From positions 1 through 44,776 of IMG/VR virus record IMGVR_UViG_2648501797_000002: DNA of 44,776 nt; one strand, written 5' to 3'. Source of the stretch: a virus (lineage: Duplodnaviria; Heunggongvirae; Uroviricota; Caudoviricetes). The translations under genes were made by a program, and so were the position numbers. Shown in pieces: positions 6,443 to 43,768 of the stretch. Under the pieces are notes generated by a model. It worked only from the letters and a program-made list of their open reading frames with translations, did not search any database and was not told the DNA's origin. Positions within the stretch are counted from its first letter, which is position 1. Each line of letters starts with the position of its first letter.

Positions 6443-7026
6443 TGCTCACCTCCTTCTGATAGCATTGTTTCTAAAATGGTTAATGCCTGTTGATCCAGTG
6501 TAATATCTAGAGGAATCTGCAAGAATCCCTTCCATGTAAGATCCCTTCTATGAGACCACATACTGTACCAATATACAGTCCTTTCTACAAGCTGCTCCTT
6601 AGAAACGCCCAGTGACTGGAAGTAAGAATCAACTCTAAACTCTTGCTTTCTCCACTTACCCATATGTGGCACAAACAGATTCGGGTTACGCATAACGACA
6701 TCTTGCTGCGTTTCGTTAAACGCCAAATTAAAAAAAGTCACAACATCAATGTCATTTGGCGGACGTTTTTCAATGAGTTCAACATCTTCTATGAAACTAC
6801 CATCGATCCATTGAAAACCATCCGTTAACCCAGTTTTATTAATTTCTTTACGAAATTTGATGAAACCGAGTAAGATCTCGATCCTTTGTGGGCTTGTAGC
6901 GTACCGCTCTACAAATTTTAATATATCTGTCTTATATGGGGAGCGATAGGCGCTGGTTGGATGCTCCATATCCATTGGTGGGATTACACCAATTTCATTC
7001 CAGTTAGGAATTTCCTGAATCACCAT
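6439..7026 (-). CDS. Predicted nucleotidyltransferase-fold protein (195 aa)
   Basis: GS...DxD pattern (IDGSFIEDVELIEKRPPNDIDVV) consistent with a Pol-beta-type minimal nucleotidyltransferase; AT-rich. Confidence 0.5.
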   Translation of the reverse strand: MVIQEIPNWNEIGVIPPMDMEHPTSAYRSPYKTDILKFVERYATSPQRIEILLGFIKFRKEINKTGLTDGFQWIDGSFIEDVELIEKRPPNDIDVVTFFNLAFNETQQDVVMRNPNLFVPHMGKWRKQEFRVDSYFQSLGVSKEQLVERTVYWYSMWSHRRDLTWKGFLQIPLDITLDQQALTILETMLSEGGEQ

Positions 7027-15805: not shown

Positions 15806-15880
15806 GCATCTGTCGTAGTTTGGTAATTACATCTGGCTTCCAACCAGAAAATGCGGGTTCGATCCCCGCCAGATGCTCCA
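15806..15880 (+). tRNA. Phage-encoded tRNA-Gly (anticodon UCC)
   Basis: 75-nt cloverleaf folded by hand: 7-bp acceptor stem, D-loop with GG, anticodon loop CUUCCAA, T-arm GCGGG-TTCGATC-CCCGC, discriminator U, CCA end. Confidence 0.75.
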
Positions 15881-35812: not shown

Positions 35813-36582
35813 GCAGATACACTGACCGCATAACAAACTACCACGCCGGTAAACCAAAGTTCTTTGCACACGTTGACCTGTCCACCAGGCCACTGAGCGA
35901 TGTTTCCGATGCAATGTCACGGCTAATACCCGATTTTGATATTGATACCGCCATTGGCGTGCAGCTTGACGTTGTAGGCGAATGGGTTGGTCGTTCCCGT
36001 CGCGTGGCAACACCGGTAACCGGGATTTATTTTTCGTGGGACACCGAACGGGTTGGCTGGGATCAGGGGGTCTGGCAGGGACCATATGACCCAAACGACG
36101 GTTTTATCGATCTCAGTGATGAAATATATCGGCTAATGCTGAAGGTGAAAGTGGCGATAAACAACTGGGATGGTCAGAACGACTCGCTTCCTCCAATTCT
36201 TGATACCGCCCTTGCCGGATCCGGGATCCGCATGGCTATTGTCGACAACCAGGATATGTCGATTTCTATCTGGATACTCGGTGACCCTTCGGTAGCCCTA
36301 AGTGAAATAGACCGGTTAATTCTGGATAGCGCCGTCAATAAAGGCCCCTTTATCGCATTACCGGCAGGTTACGTACCATCGCGCTATGACATTAACCCGA
36401 TTGACCAGGTTAACAGCGAGCTATGGTGGGCGATTCAGAACGGTTATATGACGGTTAAAGCCGCAGGGGTTCGTGTCCGTGAAATAGAGACCGTCAGTGA
36501 TGGTTATCATTTTTTTGGCTTCGATATCGAAAATGACTATATCGCTGGTTTCGACCGCGGGTCATGGGGAGAGAGATTTTAA
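35809..36582 (+). CDS. Baseplate/tail protein I-like
   Basis: 257-aa ORF upstream of fibre gene. Confidence 0.45.
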   Translation: MSRYTDRITNYHAGKPKFFAHVDLSTRPLSDVSDAMSRLIPDFDIDTAIGVQLDVVGEWVGRSRRVATPVTGIYFSWDTERVGWDQGVWQGPYDPNDGFIDLSDEIYRLMLKVKVAINNWDGQNDSLPPILDTALAGSGIRMAIVDNQDMSISIWILGDPSVALSEIDRLILDSAVNKGPFIALPAGYVPSRYDINPIDQVNSELWWAIQNGYMTVKAAGVRVREIETVSDGYHFFGFDIENDYIAGFDRGSWGERF

Positions 36583-37451
36583 TGGCGACTAACGATTTTA
36601 AACCCTTCGCTACTGGTAGCGGGGCAAACGTATTATCACAGGCTGATTATGAAGCGCTATCTGCACTGGCATCAGGGTTTCTTTCCGGCAAAGCCTCGTC
36701 AGCACAAGTAAATAAAGCACTACGGCAATCCTCTACAATTGCTGCCGTCCTTGCGCAATTCATGGCGGATAGCACAGGAAGCGATGTCCTGGATAATGGA
36801 AACATTGCCACATTACTAAATATTCTCAAGTCTGCACTTAATAATCAGGCAGAAGGACGCCTGCTCCGCATTCAGGTTTTTACCGCTAGCGGAGCATGGG
36901 TAAAAGCTGCTGGCACTAAAAAAGTCAGAATCAAGGCATGGGGTGCAGGCGGAGGGGGTAAGGGGACAGACGTCGCAGGGACTGGTGCGCCTAGTGGGGC
37001 GGGTGGTGCATACGTTGAGGGATTATATGACGTAAGCACCATTAATGGGGCGAATATCGTTATTGGCGCTGGTGGTGCGGCAGTTGCTGCAGGGAGTGCA
37101 GGAAATGGGGGTGATGGGGGAGACACTACCATTACCGCTCTGGGTATCTCTGCTGGTGGTGGTAAGGGCGGAAACTCTGCTGGTAATTCTGCTGGCGGAA
37201 TTCCGGGAGCTCCATCTGTTGGGACAATATTCTCAGTGGCTGGTCAGGGAGGACAGGGAGGATCAGGTGTAAGCCTGGGTGGTGTAGGTGGCGCATCGCA
37301 CAGTAGTTATGGTGGCCTTCCACACGTTAGTTCATCCGGTGATGATGGATTTTTCCCTGGTGGAGGTGGTGCTGGCGCATCATATGACTCAATCGCCAGG
37401 GCATCAGGGAAGGGCGCTAACGGCTATGTCATCATTGAGGAGTACGCATAA
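36582..37451 (+). CDS. Tail fibre protein with glycine-rich C-terminal domain
   Basis: Gly-rich repeats (GAGGGGKG..., GGGKGGNSAGNSAGG...) and C-terminal ...GYVIIEEYA; TAATG coupling to the upstream gene. Confidence 0.55.
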   Translation: MATNDFKPFATGSGANVLSQADYEALSALASGFLSGKASSAQVNKALRQSSTIAAVLAQFMADSTGSDVLDNGNIATLLNILKSALNNQAEGRLLRIQVFTASGAWVKAAGTKKVRIKAWGAGGGGKGTDVAGTGAPSGAGGAYVEGLYDVSTINGANIVIGAGGAAVAAGSAGNGGDGGDTTITALGISAGGGKGGNSAGNSAGGIPGAPSVGTIFSVAGQGGQGGSGVSLGGVGGASHSSYGGLPHVSSSGDDGFFPGGGGAGASYDSIARASGKGANGYVIIEEYA

Positions 37452-37648
37452 TGGCAGGTAATTACGCAGTCATTGAAAGTGGAATAGTTAAAAACATCAT
37501 AATTGCGGAAAGCGGTTATGAATATGATGGTGCTGAACTTATCGAATATCCTGAAAGTGTATTTTGCCAGCCAGGGATGTTTTATAACAAGGCAGACGGG
37601 CTATTTTACGATGATAAAGAATATTCAAAAATAAATAGCAAGAATTAA
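37451..37648 (+). CDS. Hypothetical small protein
   Basis: 65-aa AT-rich ORF coupled by TAATG to the fibre gene. Confidence 0.35.
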   Translation: MAGNYAVIESGIVKNIIIAESGYEYDGAELIEYPESVFCQPGMFYNKADGLFYDDKEYSKINSKN

Positions 37649-37706
37649 GTCACTAAATTACCAGAAAGCAAACTGACCTTATGGTCGGTTTTTTATTGGG
37701 GCGACC

Positions 37707-39857
37707 ATGAGTGAATACGATACCGGCAATCCTGTGCCGTCTGCATCCATGCCTGATGCATGGGATAATATGCAGTCTATTGACAAGTTCGTTAATAGCA
37801 GTGATGAAACCATTACCACACGCACAGGCAAACAGTTAGATACTTTGCATGGCGTTAATGTTAAGGCGGACAACCAGCTAACGCAGCAGCAAGCAGACTT
37901 TGAAACCTCGCAAGAAGAAAGGGATGCTGTAGTTGAGGAAACCAGGCAGAACCTGATCCCTCTGAGCAAGCAATACATGACGCTTGCTGATGCGCAGGCA
38001 GATATCGCAAATATCCCGGTGGGGTCTACCACGTATTACCGCAGTCCTGATGATAGCGCGCTGGCTATTGAAGTAATTAACAATGGTGGCACTCTTGAGC
38101 CCACCGGTAGAAAAATGCCATCTAAGAAGTATATAGATGATGAAATTGCTCCTTACTCCCCTTTGTTAAATATAACCCAAGCATCAGAATTCTTTTCCTC
38201 TGATGAATATAAAGATTCTGGGGTCGAAGAGGCTATATTAGATGAAAATAAAAAAACACTACTATCCAGAAAAGGCGCTGAGTGGTTTTTTCAAAAAATA
38301 ATAGCGGGAGAAATCAGCGCAGATGAATTTTCTGCCGAAATCCTTTCAGGTAATGACATTTTGATTTCCGGGCAGAGCCTTCTTGGAATCGTTCCTTTTT
38401 TACAGGCTTCGACATTTGTCGATATATCTGAATTTTCGGATTCGGGGTATGATTCCGCAACTTTTTCTGAAAACAATAGAATCATTGTTGGCATTAAAGG
38501 GACCACCCTTTATTTTAGCAAAATTGTCGTTGGTGATGCTGTAATTGAAGGAAGCGATTTTACAGAGGTAAAGGGTGTTACTGACGCATTATCACCTCTT
38601 CCAGAGTCAGTAACATTTCTCTCACCTGATGAGTATGCAGATAGTGGATACATTTCGGCATCCACATCTGAAAACCTGGTTGTTATCGAGTCGCTGAAAT
38701 CATCGGACCTGACAAACTCAGGTCATCCTGATTACATTGCATTTAGCGAAGAGAAAGGAGGCTATGAGCAGATTTTCCTGTTTGATCGCGATACAGGTCA
38801 GCAGGTTCGTGTAACCAATACATCCAGTAATGAAACCCTGCCACGCGTTGATGGTGATAAGGTTATCTGGCAATCGGACAGGGAGACTAATCGCGCACCG
38901 GGTGGGCAGTATTATTGCTATATCAGTGATCTGACTGAGCACTCTGTAATGTCCAGGCCGATCATTTGCGGGTGGGGCCATTCAATGGTTGACAACCCCC
39001 GTATGCTGACACGCCTGCAGGAGCTAACCGGATACACGGCCTATAACTTTGGCAAAAGCTCACGCACAAGCGTTGGCACAGCTGCTGCTCAGGGTGGGCG
39101 CAGAGCGTATTACGTTCCAGTTGGCGGCAGCATTCCTGCCAGCGGTTCGGTAACTCTTTCTCCGGCAAACCCGGGGCCACTGAGTTATTTTGCCAACGCC
39201 GCAGCATCGACGCCGTTCCACGGTTCTCTGGCTGGCATTCCAGGCAATTTTGCATGGGATGGAACGAATGCCACATTTACCCGTGATGCATCTGGTGATG
39301 CGGTTAGCGTACCTGTTGCCGTGCCATTCATTTGTGATCCGGTGACCACTGGCGCTATTACCGGAGGCATTCCGGCAGGAACATCTTTCCCTCTTCACCC
39401 TGAATGTATAAATATTTTCTGGATGGGAAGGAATAATATTAGCCAGTCAATGCAGGTTCTCAGCGACACTATTGGTGTAGTTGAATACCTTAAATCTCTT
39501 GGGCAGAAGGTTATTATCCTGCCTGATTTTAACAGCAGTGTTGAGCCCCGTGGATCAGCAGGTTATGCAAACGTCATGTTATCAAACAGCATGATTAAAA
39601 AGAAATACCCTGAGTTATGGTGCGAAATTGATAGTGTTGATATGAGGGAAAACTTCGTAAACAACTATAATCCAGCATATTCTCAGGACGTTTCTGACTT
39701 TGGAAATGATATCCCTCCAACTTCATTGAAGTATGACGGACTGCATCCTAGCCAATCGAAAGAAACATCTAACGCCCCTGAATATGCATTGCAGGCTGGC
39801 GCGGACGTAAACGCTGAATTTATTTACCAGAAATTTCAATTATTAGGGTGGGTGTAA
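37707..39857 (+). CDS. Tailspike/receptor-binding protein with central PD40-like beta-propeller region and C-terminal SGNH/GDSL-type esterase domain
   Basis: C-terminal DGLHPS block-V-like motif and GWGHSM block-I-like motif; central YIAFSE...DGDKVIWQSDRE resembles TolB-type PD40 repeats; AT-rich 5' half. Confidence 0.55.
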   Translation: MSEYDTGNPVPSASMPDAWDNMQSIDKFVNSSDETITTRTGKQLDTLHGVNVKADNQLTQQQADFETSQEERDAVVEETRQNLIPLSKQYMTLADAQADIANIPVGSTTYYRSPDDSALAIEVINNGGTLEPTGRKMPSKKYIDDEIAPYSPLLNITQASEFFSSDEYKDSGVEEAILDENKKTLLSRKGAEWFFQKIIAGEISADEFSAEILSGNDILISGQSLLGIVPFLQASTFVDISEFSDSGYDSATFSENNRIIVGIKGTTLYFSKIVVGDAVIEGSDFTEVKGVTDALSPLPESVTFLSPDEYADSGYISASTSENLVVIESLKSSDLTNSGHPDYIAFSEEKGGYEQIFLFDRDTGQQVRVTNTSSNETLPRVDGDKVIWQSDRETNRAPGGQYYCYISDLTEHSVMSRPIICGWGHSMVDNPRMLTRLQELTGYTAYNFGKSSRTSVGTAAAQGGRRAYYVPVGGSIPASGSVTLSPANPGPLSYFANAAASTPFHGSLAGIPGNFAWDGTNATFTRDASGDAVSVPVAVPFICDPVTTGAITGGIPAGTSFPLHPECINIFWMGRNNISQSMQVLSDTIGVVEYLKSLGQKVIILPDFNSSVEPRGSAGYANVMLSNSMIKKKYPELWCEIDSVDMRENFVNNYNPAYSQDVSDFGNDIPPTSLKYDGLHPSQSKETSNAPEYALQAGADVNAEFIYQKFQLLGWV

Positions 39858-39858
39858 A

Positions 39859-40662
39859 ATGGGTCCGTTTGAGAAACGAAATGGTGTAATTGCCACAACT
39901 GGAGATATTCTTTATCGTGATGGCTCTATAAATAGCGGAACGAAGGGATTAATTTCATGCCATAACACATGGTCTGGCGCTGGGGCAAACCTTGCCGCAG
40001 GAGCGCAGATAAAAAATATGTGCTACGTGAATGACCACGCAACAGCAAACTCAGTGCTTACCGCCGCAGGTGGTGGCTATGCCCTTAATTCAGTGCATGC
40101 TCAAGGCATCAATCTCCCGGCATCAATGATTGCTACATCAGGGATGACAAATTATCTGTATACGTTCTGGCTGAAAGTAACAGGTGCTGCTGCAGCTACT
40201 TCCAACTCATTCCTGGTGGCTCTGACAAATGGCACACCCAGTAACGCAGCGAACACGCTGTTTTGGCTGCGCCCGACATTCTCTTCAACAACTGCCGCGA
40301 GCGCATTGCAGGTGATTAACCACGGAGAGGTGATTAATGCGTACTCATTCCTGTCAGGGCTTTTTGATGGGAATGTCCACCAGGTTGCTGTTGAGCGCGT
40401 AGTTTCTTCTGATGGAACAATGCAGAAATCGCGCCTCTACCTTGATGGCGTACTGAAGTATGAGAGCTCATTCTCAGCGATTGTTGCTTATCCGGCAGCA
40501 ATTACTCTGGCGCGGCTGGGGGATGCTGAAATAACAACGACATCACTCTCGGTGAATGGTGGAGTGTATCGCTGTCGACTAGATGACCTGACGCTAACAA
40601 GTAAAAATGCCTTAGAGATTCTTTCAGATGACATCAACCTGGTTAATGGGCGCTATAGCTAA
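39859..40662 (+). CDS. Hypothetical protein downstream of tailspike
   Basis: 267-aa coupled ORF; Ala/Ser/Thr-rich. Confidence 0.4.
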   Translation: MGPFEKRNGVIATTGDILYRDGSINSGTKGLISCHNTWSGAGANLAAGAQIKNMCYVNDHATANSVLTAAGGGYALNSVHAQGINLPASMIATSGMTNYLYTFWLKVTGAAAATSNSFLVALTNGTPSNAANTLFWLRPTFSSTTAASALQVINHGEVINAYSFLSGLFDGNVHQVAVERVVSSDGTMQKSRLYLDGVLKYESSFSAIVAYPAAITLARLGDAEITTTSLSVNGGVYRCRLDDLTLTSKNALEILSDDINLVNGRYS

Positions 40663-40731
40663 AACAATAGTTTGCTACTGCCGCAGGGATTGATAGCCAC
40701 AACCAGCATTGATCTGCCACCAACTTAAAAT

Positions 40732-40751
40732 TACTGTATATAAAAACAGTG
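40732..40751 (+). promoter_or_regulatory. LexA (SOS) box TACTGTATATAAAAACAGTG overlapping a -10-like TATA element
   Basis: CTGT-N8-ACAG palindrome matching the LexA operator consensus, 17 nt upstream of the ATG at 40768. Confidence 0.7.
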
Positions 40752-40767
40752 TTTATGGGGGGAGATC

Positions 40768-41007
40768 ATGCTTCGACAGTCAGACATCACTGCGGCTTTC
40801 CGCGAGTCGGTTTTGCGCAGTTCCAAGGGGTTCCAGTACCTTCACACCAGAGACTTCGTTACCGCGCTGCGCCGGCGCGGCATCCATTTTTCCGAGGTGG
40901 AGGCGAACTCTTGGATCGCACGCGAGCAGACGTATTTCGTCGATAAGACGCCGGACCATAGCGAAAACAGGCTGTGGATGATGGCCAACATGGGGAGGGT
41001 GATCTAA
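40768..41007 (+). CDS. Hypothetical 79-aa protein, first gene of the SOS-box cassette
   Basis: Strong RBS GGGGGGAG; ends with TAATG overlap into the next gene. Confidence 0.5.
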   Translation: MLRQSDITAAFRESVLRSSKGFQYLHTRDFVTALRRRGIHFSEVEANSWIAREQTYFVDKTPDHSENRLWMMANMGRVI

Positions 41008-41324
41008 TGGGATTCCCTTCACCCGCGACGGACTACGTCGAGCAAAGGTTGTCTGTTAACTCGATCTGCAATGTCGGCCCAAACACGCTAGTTTTCGAGC
41101 GATCTGGTGGTTACGTTGTACTGGATATCTCCCTGAAGCCAAAGCAGGGTAGTCAGATTCTGATCCAACACGGCGGCGGGACGGAACTTGCCACGCTGAG
41201 AGGAAAGGCGCTGATTACTGAAGATGGTGAAGCGATCGATGGCGAAGCCCTGGACGATGTTACTGTCATCGGGGTCGTGACATTTACTATCTGCGATGTT
41301 CGTTCTGATAATTCTATTATTTAA
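41007..41324 (+). CDS. UmuD-like protein beginning at the UmuD-prime-equivalent position and lacking the catalytic Ser
   Basis: N-terminus MGFPSPATDYVEQRLSVN matches the UmuD segment after its self-cleavage site; C-terminal LDDVTVIGVV matches UmuD; the SGDSM region is replaced by SGG. Confidence 0.6.
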   Translation: MGFPSPATDYVEQRLSVNSICNVGPNTLVFERSGGYVVLDISLKPKQGSQILIQHGGGTELATLRGKALITEDGEAIDGEALDDVTVIGVVTFTICDVRSDNSII

Positions 41325-41335
41325 CTGGGGTATAT

Positions 41336-42367
41336 ATGGCGCTGAAGCTATTAGCCAATAATAACGCAAAGAGTGTGCTCGCTGCGGGTATTAGCGCGTC
41401 CGCTACCGTTATTACCGTGGGTACTGGAGCGGGGTCTTTATTCCCTTCCCCTGTATCTGGACAGAGCTATTTCAAATTAACGATAACCGATGCGGCGACG
41501 AAAACAATTTCTGAAATTATGCACGTTACGTCTGTATCCGGTGACGTGATGACAGTAATTCGTGGTCAGGAAGGAACTACGGCGCGCGTATGGTCAACGA
41601 ATGACATTGTCGCGAATTTAATGACCGCCGGATCATTATTATCTTTCCTGCAGATCAGTAATAACCTGTCAGAAATTAAAGACGCAGGACAGGATGCGGT
41701 AAATGAAGCCCGTTATAACCTCGGAATATCTGATTCCTCTGGTTTTGTCGGGCGTTCACTTGGCGCGCCAAAAACTTTCTATGCAAACGGAACCTATACG
41801 CGATCAGCGCTGGCCCGTTTTGCAAAAATAACGATGGTCGGAGGCGGCGGTGGTGGTGGTGGGTGCCAGGCCTCAAACAATACAGAAACCTTCTCCGGTG
41901 CCGGCGGCGGCGCGGGGGCGACCATTATCGTATGGGTTGACCTGTCTGCTGCCAGTTCTTATGCGATTACTGTCGGCAAGGGTGGTAAGGGCGGAGTTGG
42001 CGCAGTAAGTGGTGCGGATGGTGGGGCTACCTCGTTTGCCAGCCTGTTCTCAGCTCCTGGCGGGAAAGGTGGCGTGAAGTCAGGAGTGTCCAATACCGCC
42101 GGCGGCGCCGGAGGTACGGCTTCGTCCGGAGATATCAGGATCAACGGAGGTGCCGGCTCAGATGGACAGACAGGGTCAAGCCTTCTGACGGGCAACGGTG
42201 GGGCGTCGTATTTTGGCGGCGGTGGCCGGGCGGGTTCTCAGGCCGGTATTGCTGGCGCAGCTCCCGGATCCGGTGGTGGTGGCGCTTATGACCTTGGGTT
42301 TACCGGTACGGCATTTACCGGTGGTGATGGTGCTACTGGCATGGCGATCGTGGAAGAATTCGCGTAA
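41336..42367 (+). CDS. Glycine-rich fibre-like protein with C-terminal domain related to that of the 36582-37451 gene
   Basis: Gly-rich blocks (GGGGGGGGC..., GGKGGVGAVSG..., GGAGG...) and terminal ...GMAIVEEFA; 11 nt after the UmuD-like gene. Confidence 0.5.
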   Translation: MALKLLANNNAKSVLAAGISASATVITVGTGAGSLFPSPVSGQSYFKLTITDAATKTISEIMHVTSVSGDVMTVIRGQEGTTARVWSTNDIVANLMTAGSLLSFLQISNNLSEIKDAGQDAVNEARYNLGISDSSGFVGRSLGAPKTFYANGTYTRSALARFAKITMVGGGGGGGGCQASNNTETFSGAGGGAGATIIVWVDLSAASSYAITVGKGGKGGVGAVSGADGGATSFASLFSAPGGKGGVKSGVSNTAGGAGGTASSGDIRINGGAGSDGQTGSSLLTGNGGASYFGGGGRAGSQAGIAGAAPGSGGGGAYDLGFTGTAFTGGDGATGMAIVEEFA

Positions 42368-42371
42368 TGGC

Positions 42372-43568
42372 TTACTCTCCTGCGCGACCATCGATGTAAT
42401 CAGCCCACCACTGCATCATTTCTCTGCGCTTATCGAGATACTGAGCATGGTTGTAAATACCGCGCACAGATCCGCCGTTGGCATGTGCCAGCTGCACTTC
42501 AATAGCGTCAGCAGGCCATTCGTGCTCGTTCATAATCGTGCTGAATTCATGCCTGAATCCGTGACCGCTTTCCAGACCTTCATAGCCGATTTGTTTGATC
42601 ACAAGCAATACCGCGTTCTCGCAGATTGGCTTCTTCTTATCGTTGCGCCCGGCAAAAACAAACTCTGAGACTGGTTTGGTGATTGAGCTTAGCGTAGTGA
42701 GAAGTTCAACCACCTGGTCTGACATCGGGACCACATGAATTTTGCGTCCCTTCATCACACTGGCGTCGATGGTGATAATCCTGTTTTCAAAATCGACGTT
42801 CTTCCATAGCATGGAACGAAGCTCTTTTGTTCTTAGGGCTGTGTAGCGTAAAACTTTGGTCGCAATGAGCGATACGATACTTCCTGAAAATGTTGCAAGT
42901 GCTTTGTTGAATGCCGGGATCTGGTCGGCAGGTAAAAACGGGAAGTTCTTCTTGCGGTATCCCTTCATGGCGTCAGCAAGGTCAGGTGCCGGGTTATATT
43001 TAGCCCTACCAGTGACAATAGCGTAACGGAAAACCTCGCCGCATCTTCTGCGGGCTTTGTTGGCTCGCTCCATTGCACCGCGATCTTCAAATCTGCGGAT
43101 TACTTCCAGCAGTTGCATCGGCTCAATATCCTGAATCTCAAGACCGCCGATGATGGGTAAAATGTCGTCATCAAACATTTTGGCAAGTTCAGTTGCATAG
43201 CCTACTGACCAGACTTGCTTCTTGTGCTCGTACCATTCCTTGTAAATCGCACTAAATGAATTGTTGTTAGACGAAGCCTTTTTCGTCTTTACCGGATCGA
43301 TGCCAACCGAGATGTCTTTCCTCGCAGTCCATGCCTTATCCCTTGCTTCCTGCAAAGTCATAAGCGGATATTTTCCGACGGTCAGGATTTTCTCCTTACC
43401 GTCAATCTTGTAGCGAAGCTGCCATACCTTTTTCCCTGACACAGGGACATAAAGGTACAGGCCATTACCATCGAGAAGGCGGTATGGTTTTTCTTTCGGC
43501 TTTGCTGCTTCAATCTGCTTAACGGTGAGCATGGGTAAAAATCCGGTGGGTAAAATTATTTTATCCAC
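42372..43568 (-). CDS. intS: Tyrosine integrase (IntS-like)
   Basis: C-terminal HGFRHEF and tyrosine-containing motifs; adjacent to tRNA-Arg 3' end; symbol assigned from the argW-adjacent genomic context in E. coli. Confidence 0.85.
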   Translation of the reverse strand: MDKIILPTGFLPMLTVKQIEAAKPKEKPYRLLDGNGLYLYVPVSGKKVWQLRYKIDGKEKILTVGKYPLMTLQEARDKAWTARKDISVGIDPVKTKKASSNNNSFSAIYKEWYEHKKQVWSVGYATELAKMFDDDILPIIGGLEIQDIEPMQLLEVIRRFEDRGAMERANKARRRCGEVFRYAIVTGRAKYNPAPDLADAMKGYRKKNFPFLPADQIPAFNKALATFSGSIVSLIATKVLRYTALRTKELRSMLWKNVDFENRIITIDASVMKGRKIHVVPMSDQVVELLTTLSSITKPVSEFVFAGRNDKKKPICENAVLLVIKQIGYEGLESGHGFRHEFSTIMNEHEWPADAIEVQLAHANGGSVRGIYNHAQYLDKRREMMQWWADYIDGRAGE

Positions 43569-43693: not shown

Positions 43694-43768
43694 TGGTGTC
43701 CCCTGCAGGAATCGAACCTGCAATTAGCCCTTAGGAGGGGCTCGTTATATCCATTTAACTAAGAGGAC
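43694..43768 (-). tRNA. argW: tRNA-Arg (anticodon CCU)
   Basis: 75-nt cloverleaf on the minus strand: acceptor GTCCTCT/AGGGGAC, anticodon loop CUCCUAA, T-arm GCAGGTTCGATTCCTGC, CCA end. Confidence 0.9.

Follow-up and report, generated by a model that had tools for sequence, protein, structure and literature searches.

Two fibre-like proteins of one prophage share a homologous glycine-rich C-terminal domain on unrelated N-termini, one of them encoded behind a putative UmuD'-type SOS insert

Why should a single prophage encode two fibre-like proteins with different N-termini and much the same glycine-rich C-terminal end, and what does it mean that the second of these genes lies behind genes resembling part of the SOS response? 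The question is raised by a 44,776-nucleotide (nt) stretch of DNA from a virus of the Caudoviricetes (IMG/VR record IMGVR_UViG_2648501797_000002, positions 1 to 44,776), which was analysed at its full length and is called the window below. An initial annotation, made from the sequence itself, had singled out the genes at 36582-37451 and 41336-42367, whose products are here named P1 and P2, and had read their similar C-termini as a sign of modular exchange of a receptor-binding or assembly domain, or of a second fibre expressed under DNA-damage control. Both open reading frames (ORFs) are real, their termini are as described (P1 ends in GKGANGYVIIEEYA, P2 in GDGATGMAIVEEFA), and so is their placement, the P1 gene following a baseplate wedge gene and the P2 gene lying between a cassette with a LexA box and the integrase gene; the interpretation itself is partly supported. 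The observation holds, and known biology accounts for it: two fibres with different attachment ends and the same known tip represent ordinary fibre modularity, accompanied by one mildly unusual regulatory neighbour. Taken as a whole, the locus is probably best explained by two receptor-binding proteins with tips of one kind (the TG domain, defined below) on different anchors, P2 being encoded behind a UmuD'-type SOS insert.

The resemblance between the C-terminal parts of P1 and P2 extends over an ordered domain of about 195 residues (residues 98-289 of P1 and 146-343 of P2). With an alignment of 24 sequences built for each family, hhalign matched the P1 family to the P2 family with a probability of 100% (E = 1.1e-38, score about 267, 207 columns), while controls that keep the glycine content scored 19.8 for the reversed P2 alignment and 12-23 for eight column shuffles of the C-terminal domain. 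A Smith-Waterman comparison of P1 with P2 scores 254, as against 121 ± 12 in 500 shuffles (maximum 167, z = 11), and the N-termini are indeed unrelated (z = -1.7). The 187 columns of the homologous region include 76 identities, of which 43 are glycines, and in the columns that are free of glycine on both sides 33 of 115 (29%) are still identical. Both proteins cover positions 7-224 of the 226 positions of the Pfam profile PF21722 (Gly_rich_2), with 57.6 bits for P2 and 25.5 bits for P1, and both match the same profile regions of PHROGs 863, 6202, 454 and 356, which are annotated as tail proteins. The first and last glycine loops contain motifs of the GGGGxGG type, a criterion taken from the Pam3 paper (PMC9608196): WGAGGGGKG and FPGGGGAGA in P1, VGGGGGGGGC and PGSGGGGAY in P2. 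Composition-adjusted BLASTP of P1 against P2 aligns the last 31 residues only (E = 0.49), which is too conservative, and the profile and shuffle tests were used in its place. No match to NCBIfam was found for P1, P2 or the product of orf79, a gene introduced below, and a search of the window found no third TG domain.

These alignments confirm that the two tips are an ordered homologous domain and not mere glycine richness, which is also how the alignment check proposed with the initial annotation turned out. The view that the resemblance is low-complexity glycine bias with a chance similarity of the termini could appeal to the short BLASTP match and to the many glycines among the identities, but it has next to no chance of being right, as the profile score collapses upon reversal or column shuffling, the Smith-Waterman score lies far outside its shuffles, identity persists in glycine-free columns, and both proteins share the same Pfam and PHROG regions and the same structural neighbours; as the sole cause of the resemblance, glycine bias is refuted by these controls.

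The structural neighbours come from AlphaFold (AF2) models, predicted structures in which the C-terminal domain reaches a predicted local distance difference test score (pLDDT) of about 90 in P1 and in P2. When compared with the Protein Data Bank (PDB) by Foldseek, both models find the fibre of cyanophage Pam3 as best match (7ypx/7yfw, probability 1.00, E 1e-10 to 8e-9), next the tail-tip chains of mycobacteriophage Bxb1 (9d93), and then the TNF-like/glycine-rich domain of ALK/LTK, so that the structure prediction check agrees with the alignments. P1 also matches the Pam3 fibre (7yfw/7ypx) directly by sequence in a phmmer search. According to these models, the distal domain of P1 and P2 is predicted to be a tumour necrosis factor (TNF)-like beta-sandwich with a glycine-rich lattice (the TG domain, PF21722), as solved in Pam3 gp24. 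That protein consists of an N-terminal helical baseplate-docking domain, a TNF-like domain and the glycine-rich lattice, the last of which has a variable distal tip that is the proposed receptor binder (PMC9608196). A full HMMER scan with the P2 tip recovered 4,714 cluster representatives at E ≤ 1e-3, in which it is nearly always C-terminal in proteins of 200-1400 amino acids (aa), and by this distribution the TG tip is a common, portable domain.

P1 (36582..37451, + strand; 289 aa) is recognised as a tail fibre of the Pam3 gp24 type by Pfam, PHROG, phmmer, AF2 and Foldseek. Its start was placed at 36582 and not at the upstream ATG at 36564 because its homologues begin with MATN, and the gene overlaps the stop codon of the DUF2612 wedge-1 gene. 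The AF2 model (mean pLDDT 82) has helices at residues 20-34, 40-65 and 75-89, within a helical docking domain of roughly residues 1-95, and the TG domain follows at about residues 98-289 (nt 36873-37448). It is called Pam3-gp24-type since the gene comes after the wedge gene and the N-terminus is predicted to be helical; P1 is the resident baseplate fibre of a Pam3/E217-like myophage prophage. The tail module as a whole is of the Pam3/E217 minimal-myophage type, with sequence matches to a DUF3383 sheath, a KPP10 tube, a Dit-like protein, a Pam3_gp18 plug, an E217 gp41-like hub, an apex-motif spike, Baseplate_J and the DUF2612 wedge-1.

P2 (41336..42367, + strand; 343 aa), the second fibre according to Pfam, PHROG, its N-terminal match to PDB 8jov, AF2 and Foldseek, is built from an anchor (residue 1 to about 125), a helical linker and the TG domain (residues 146-343, nt 41771-42364). 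Its first 120 residues or so are similar to the N-terminal part of a protein named 'putative tail fiber protein', of which 18 chains are present in 8jov (E = 1.6e-6), an entry for which a literature search found no paper. As the N-terminal 97 residues of the monomer model have a pLDDT below 50, no fold is assigned to the anchor. P2 does not share the N-terminal docking domain of the Pam3 gp24 type. In 12 of the 19 loci that bear the P2 N-terminal anchor (P2N), an anchor of the same type also heads an upstream tailspike of 730-1270 aa (about 57% identity), one of these tailspikes being gp23 of the plaque-forming Klebsiella phage Chronis, and on account of this recurrence the anchor is taken to be a genuine virion-attachment module.

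All 13 orthologues of P2 that were examined are intact ORFs of 343 codons, with a ratio of non-synonymous to synonymous substitution rates (dN/dS) of 0.01-0.17 overall and 0.02-0.12 in the N-terminal domain; the P2 gene is under strong purifying selection. In RefSeq, PGAP lists orthologues as 272-aa proteins that start at an internal methionine (L006 9889-10707, L004 9223-10041, L090 7255-8073; L numbers denote comparison loci throughout). The 71 upstream codons left out by PGAP are intact in 13/13 copies, match a solved fibre N-terminus and show the low dN/dS of the N-terminal domain, and the 272-aa start is probably misannotated. In a sibling prophage of Escherichia coli MS 85-1, a P1-type fibre gene is followed by a small ORF, an SGNH tailspike gene and then directly by P2, with no SOS module, from which it follows that the pairing of both fibre types recurs; in phage PDP110P1, the same P2 accompanies a TG fibre of 431 aa. 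P2 would be incorporated into the virion, as a trimer, and would have a receptor-binding role; indirect support for its incorporation comes from the similarity of its anchor to a solved fibre, from tailspikes of related phages that bear this anchor type, and from the purifying selection.

Have the two tips, then, been exchanged between P1 and P2? They are about 40% identical, and no recent gene conversion at the DNA level was found between the two genes, the longest common run being 15 nt of glycine codons, so that a recent swap did not take place; the two genes are old relatives. Across the family, however, anchors and tips do reassort, so that the modular exchange put forward initially holds at this level and, as a recent event, fails for P1 and P2 themselves. 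In the fibre of MS 85-1, a P1-type anchor (76% identical) is joined to a tip that is 51-53% identical to that of P2 and 42% to that of P1, whereas Chronis gp26 combines a P2-type anchor (83% identical) with a tip only 36% identical to that of P2. Other proteins that begin with a P2-type anchor (80-96% identical) end in Gp53-like_C or Collar tips, and P2-like tips (about 60-66% identical) are found on fibre N-termini of the type known from phage P2 (PF12571/PF03406). These combinations support modular exchange of anchors and tips at the family level.

The region upstream of the P2 gene opens with a promoter-like motif at 40709..40749 (+ strand), composed of a -35 element TTGATC, a 17-nt spacer and TACTGT, with an overlapping LexA box. 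The box, CTGTATATAAAAACAG at 40734-40749, is part of an extended site, TACTGTATATAAAAACAGT at 40732-40750, which overlaps the putative -10 element and conforms to the operator criterion CTGT-N8-ACAG. Its core is identical to that of the E. coli umuD operator as given in Table 4 of PMC3009722, and box and -35 element are conserved in six of eight comparison loci (L002, L003, L005, L006, L007 and L008), with a spacer that varies; LexA would be expected to bind at 40734-40749. A second exact CTGT-N8-ACAG match in the window, CTGTACCAATATACAG at 6563-6578, lies inside a minus-strand ORF of the early region and may be due to chance, two matches per window having been reached in 13 of 100 shuffles.

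Immediately behind the LexA box comes orf79 (40768..41007, + strand), which encodes a conserved 79-aa protein with a full-length match to phrog_3893 (function unknown). The next gene (41007..41324, + strand), called humD in what follows, encodes a UmuD'-like, or HumD-like, protein of 105 aa. The latter matches phrog_3469 ('UmuD-like') at E = 2e-45, but scores only 48 bits against a cut-off of 120 bits for HumD in NCBIfam, also falls below the UmuD cut-off, and has no match to Pfam S24. Its residues 2-44 align with residues 25-67 of UmuD/UmuD' in the PDB, so that the protein begins exactly at the cleavage-site residue G25, and the position of the catalytic Ser60 is occupied by valine. Together with its umuD-type LexA operator, the combination of orf79 and a gene for a pre-processed UmuD'-like protein, seen here and in L005 and L009-L088, is widespread among prophages as an insert, being present in at least 231 IMG/VR stretches, usually just after tail-fibre or tailspike genes. 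In many loci without a P2 fibre (L014, L015, L046, L048, L050 and others), a second CTGT-N8-ACAG box is located about 430 nt after the UmuD'-like gene and is followed by an ORF of 97 aa (phrog_27544, function unknown), pointing to another small gene under SOS control at the ends of prophages.

The start of P2 is 12 nt downstream of the UmuD'-like gene, no terminator-like site is present in 41007-41336, and because of this spacing and the lack of a terminator-like site P2 is likely co-transcribed upon SOS induction in this prophage. The suggestion of a second fibre under DNA-damage control is thus plausible here, behind a conserved promoter with a LexA operator, but in other loci SOS module and fibre are often apart. 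Among 80 IMG/VR loci with a UmuD'-like gene, orf79 is paired with it in nearly all and a box lies about 36 nt upstream of orf79 in most, but a P2-type fibre follows in only about 16. This survey rejects an obligatory coupling of the orf79/UmuD'-like pair to the fibre. Among lambdoid prophages, the pair is found between stf and tfa, and P2 is found directly after a stf of 1246 aa. Of 131 matching records from complete E. coli genomes, 44 cover at least 80% of the cassette, and there are others that contain either the fibre gene only or the SOS pair only. Chronis has kept the fibre and has no LexA box, with only a truncated UmuD'-like remnant. Since SOS module and fibre each occur frequently without the other, the SOS control of P2 is probably a by-product of gene position, incidental rather than a dedicated design. 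A literature search for an SOS-controlled glycine-rich fibre returned nothing relevant.

The explanation preferred here can then be put as follows. P1 would be the resident fibre, with its helical N-terminus docking on the baseplate, and P2, with a different N-terminal anchor and a TG tip, would add a second receptor specificity to the particle. Orf79 and the pre-processed UmuD'-like protein would form an insert driven by a promoter with a umuD-matching LexA operator, and P2 would be co-transcribed with this insert upon SOS induction, read-through from the late tail operon also being possible. SOS control would in this case be a property of the UmuD'-like insert and not a requirement of the fibre.

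Several observations weigh against this explanation. The PF21722 score of P1 is only just above the cut-off of 24.3 bits, its marginal membership being backed by the hhalign match to the P2 family (E = 1e-38). Neither a P2N-type anchor nor a docking partner for it was identified elsewhere in the window, and nearly identical P2 genes are found in Pam3-like myophage and in lambdoid siphophage prophages, which is odd for a docking that is specific to one baseplate. In the fibre-only loci L089 and L090, the final 40 nt or so of the UmuD'-like gene are still found upstream of P2, and L007 and L008, whose tips differ, have an identical junction between humD and the fibre. The trio may hence be ancestral for this fibre lineage, its SOS part having been lost secondarily, which weakens the view that the linkage is incidental; these humD 3' scars also soften the case for a plain insertion of the SOS module in front of a P2 gene that was already there. 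The remnant of about 40 nt includes GATAAT, which is the -10-like half of a site resembling a promoter (41283-41312), and this site might serve P2 on its own.

The alternative that survives best, unlikely as I consider it, takes the LexA box, orf79, the UmuD'-like gene and the fibre as one mobile accessory-fibre cassette in which LexA control has been selected. Any recipient prophage would then express an extra receptor-binding protein upon induction, whatever its own late regulation, and exchange would affect the tip while the left arm stays constant. Such a cassette would agree with the occurrence of the trio, with an identical 12-nt humD-to-fibre junction, in different backbones and with three kinds of tips (TG, Gp53-like_C and Collar), with a -35 element and LexA box that are conserved across a variable spacer, with the scars that imply an ancestral trio, and with the segment 40726-42458, which takes in everything between the LexA box and a point shortly after the P2 stop codon, being 95% identical in PDP110P1, a phage of another type. 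However, such a fibre is lacking behind most orf79/UmuD'-like modules, and the fibre remains under purifying selection where the SOS promoter has been lost (the plaque-forming Chronis, L089, L004). Furthermore, the operator and the start at G25 point to simple descent from a umuDC operon, and no function links UmuD' to fibres. In its most far-reaching form, the cassette would be an autonomous, horizontally mobile plug-in for receptor binding, with its own SOS-triggered promoter, an exchangeable tip (TG, Gp53-like or Collar) and a constant anchor, which would dock on a module that the large tailspikes of myophage and siphophage prophages, unrelated in other respects, have in common; this I regard as rather unlikely.

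Alternatively, P2 may be passenger cargo that arrived by recombination with the integrase-proximal segment and is unable to dock, and that is either non-functional here or has a role outside the virion. The absence of an evident partner and the presence of the same gene in siphophage and myophage prophages would fit this, as would the mosaic nature of the integrase-proximal segment, which is 95% identical in unrelated phages and lies beside an Sf6-type integrase, and the truncated 272-aa form often annotated by PGAP. Cargo is nevertheless unlikely: the ORF is intact and constrained over precisely the N-terminal part that PGAP omits, a sibling Pam3-like prophage retains the pair of P1-type fibre and P2, the 90% cluster of P2 has 797 member sequences, and P2 has neither a signal peptide nor a PADLOC defence match. 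The preferred explanation, two TG-tip proteins on different anchors with P2 behind a UmuD'-type insert, is retained.

The genes around the two fibres complete the picture. Directly after P1, in the position of a fibre chaperone, follows an ORF of 65 aa (37451..37648, + strand) that is kept after P1-type genes in L002, L006 and L089; it matches only phrog_18617 (function unknown), has no sequence match in the PDB and could not be shown to be a chaperone. Between it and the tailspike gene there is a terminator-like hairpin with a T-run (37670-37691, + strand), at which the late tail operon may be interrupted or in need of antitermination. The large tailspike-like protein of 716 aa (37707..39857, + strand) matches tail-fibre PHROGs and has a beta-propeller-like middle part, the PHROGs matched by its C-terminal part having relatives with SGNH/GDSL esterase domains. 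A short module, ...GS..YYRS.DD..LAIEV.N..GTL.PTGRKMPS, is common to this and other large tailspike-like proteins encoded upstream of P2-type fibres (L003 4826-7657, L004 5211-8951, L001 gp23), and is kept despite differing enzymatic C-termini (SGNH/GDSL, SASA); it is present in 60 of 88 loci but is not specific to those with P2, and it is a candidate docking or adaptor region. The protein of 267 aa encoded next (39859..40662, + strand; phrog_19357, function unknown) is absent from the sibling prophage L089. PADLOC gave no defence-system match for P1, orf79, the UmuD'-like protein or the 267-aa and 716-aa proteins either.

On the other side of P2 lies an integrase gene of the IntS/Sf6 type (42372..43568, - strand), with 97-98% DNA identity to the integrases of Sf6, CUS-3 and HK633. 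The two genes are convergent, with stop codons 4 nt apart (42365-42374) and neither an ORF nor a terminator-like site between them. The prophage is integrated at argW, the gene for tRNA-Arg(CCU) (43694..43768, - strand), which is the attachment site at the prophage end with yfdC beyond it, an arrangement that is annotated likewise in L090. The phage also encodes a tRNA-Gly(UCC) of its own (15806-15880, + strand). The codons GGA and GGG make up 45% of the glycine codons of P1 (29 codons) and 33% of those of P2 (24 codons), and 17-29% in the sheath, capsid-region, portal, terminase and tape-measure genes; this tRNA may support translation of the fibre-region genes.

What follows from the two tips is, in the first place, that a glycine-rich tail of a phage protein that would pass for low complexity can be recognised as a defined receptor-binding fold. 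That one prophage has two TG tips on different anchors predicts a dual receptor specificity, probably towards lipopolysaccharide (LPS) or another surface glycan, and could be of use in host-range prediction and in fibre engineering for phages of Escherichia and Klebsiella. A fibre gene behind a umuD-type LexA operator would moreover be a case, simple to test, in which a gene for a structural phage protein is wired to the SOS response of the host. If this wiring is functional, it would be a modest addition to the ways in which temperate phages time or supplement the expression of receptor-binding proteins, and if the plug-in cassette should prove true, its acquisition would add a host-range determinant and leave the late-gene regulation of the recipient untouched.

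The nearest known system is the fibre gp24 of Pam3 (7YFW/7YPX; PMC9608196, PMC9942802), which P1 resembles in its length class (289 aa), in the succession of helical N-terminus, TNF-like and glycine-rich parts, and in the location of its gene within a Pam3-like baseplate operon. Sequence identity between gp24 and the present fibres is, however, only 24-30%, and P2 has the TG tip alone in common with it and not the helical anchor. The Pam3 chaperone gp25/Tfa shows no similarity to the 65-aa ORF behind P1, and only one type of fibre is described for Pam3, as against the two TG proteins of this prophage. Further counterparts are TFP_Y of Klebsiella phage SCNJ1-Y and MMNM_27, Pam3-like enterobacterial fibres with a TG tip that are likened to P1 and P2 by their description and not by direct sequence comparison (PMC12671077). 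TFP_Y interacts with LPS, and its glycine-rich domain is where the mutations fall by which infection of an LPS-mutant host is restored (PMC12671077). TFP_Y and MMNM_27 provide a functional precedent for the likely role of P1 and P2, although a second TG fibre behind an SOS module is not reported for these phages (PMC12671077). The TG ligand-binding domain of ALK/LTK and the glycine-rich tail-tip proteins of Bxb1 (7NX1, 7LIR, 9D93) have the same supradomain fold, which both models recover, but the likeness of ALK/LTK to P1 and P2 is at the level of the fold only, with low TM-scores (0.2-0.3) and 12-19% identity.

For the SOS module, the closest counterpart is umuDC of E. coli. The operator core is the same and the N-terminus of E. 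coli UmuD', GFPSPA.DYVEQR, is matched by the UmuD'-like protein, which at 105 aa is shorter than both UmuD' and HumD of bacteriophage P1. The module differs from umuDC by the extra 79-aa gene between operator and UmuD'-like gene and by the fact that umuC is not adjacent. In its position between the last tail gene and the integrase gene, with a promoter of its own and a mosaic occurrence across phage types, the insert is similar to phage morons and to the b-region of lambda, from which it differs in that the structural fibre gene lies downstream of the moron and not upstream.

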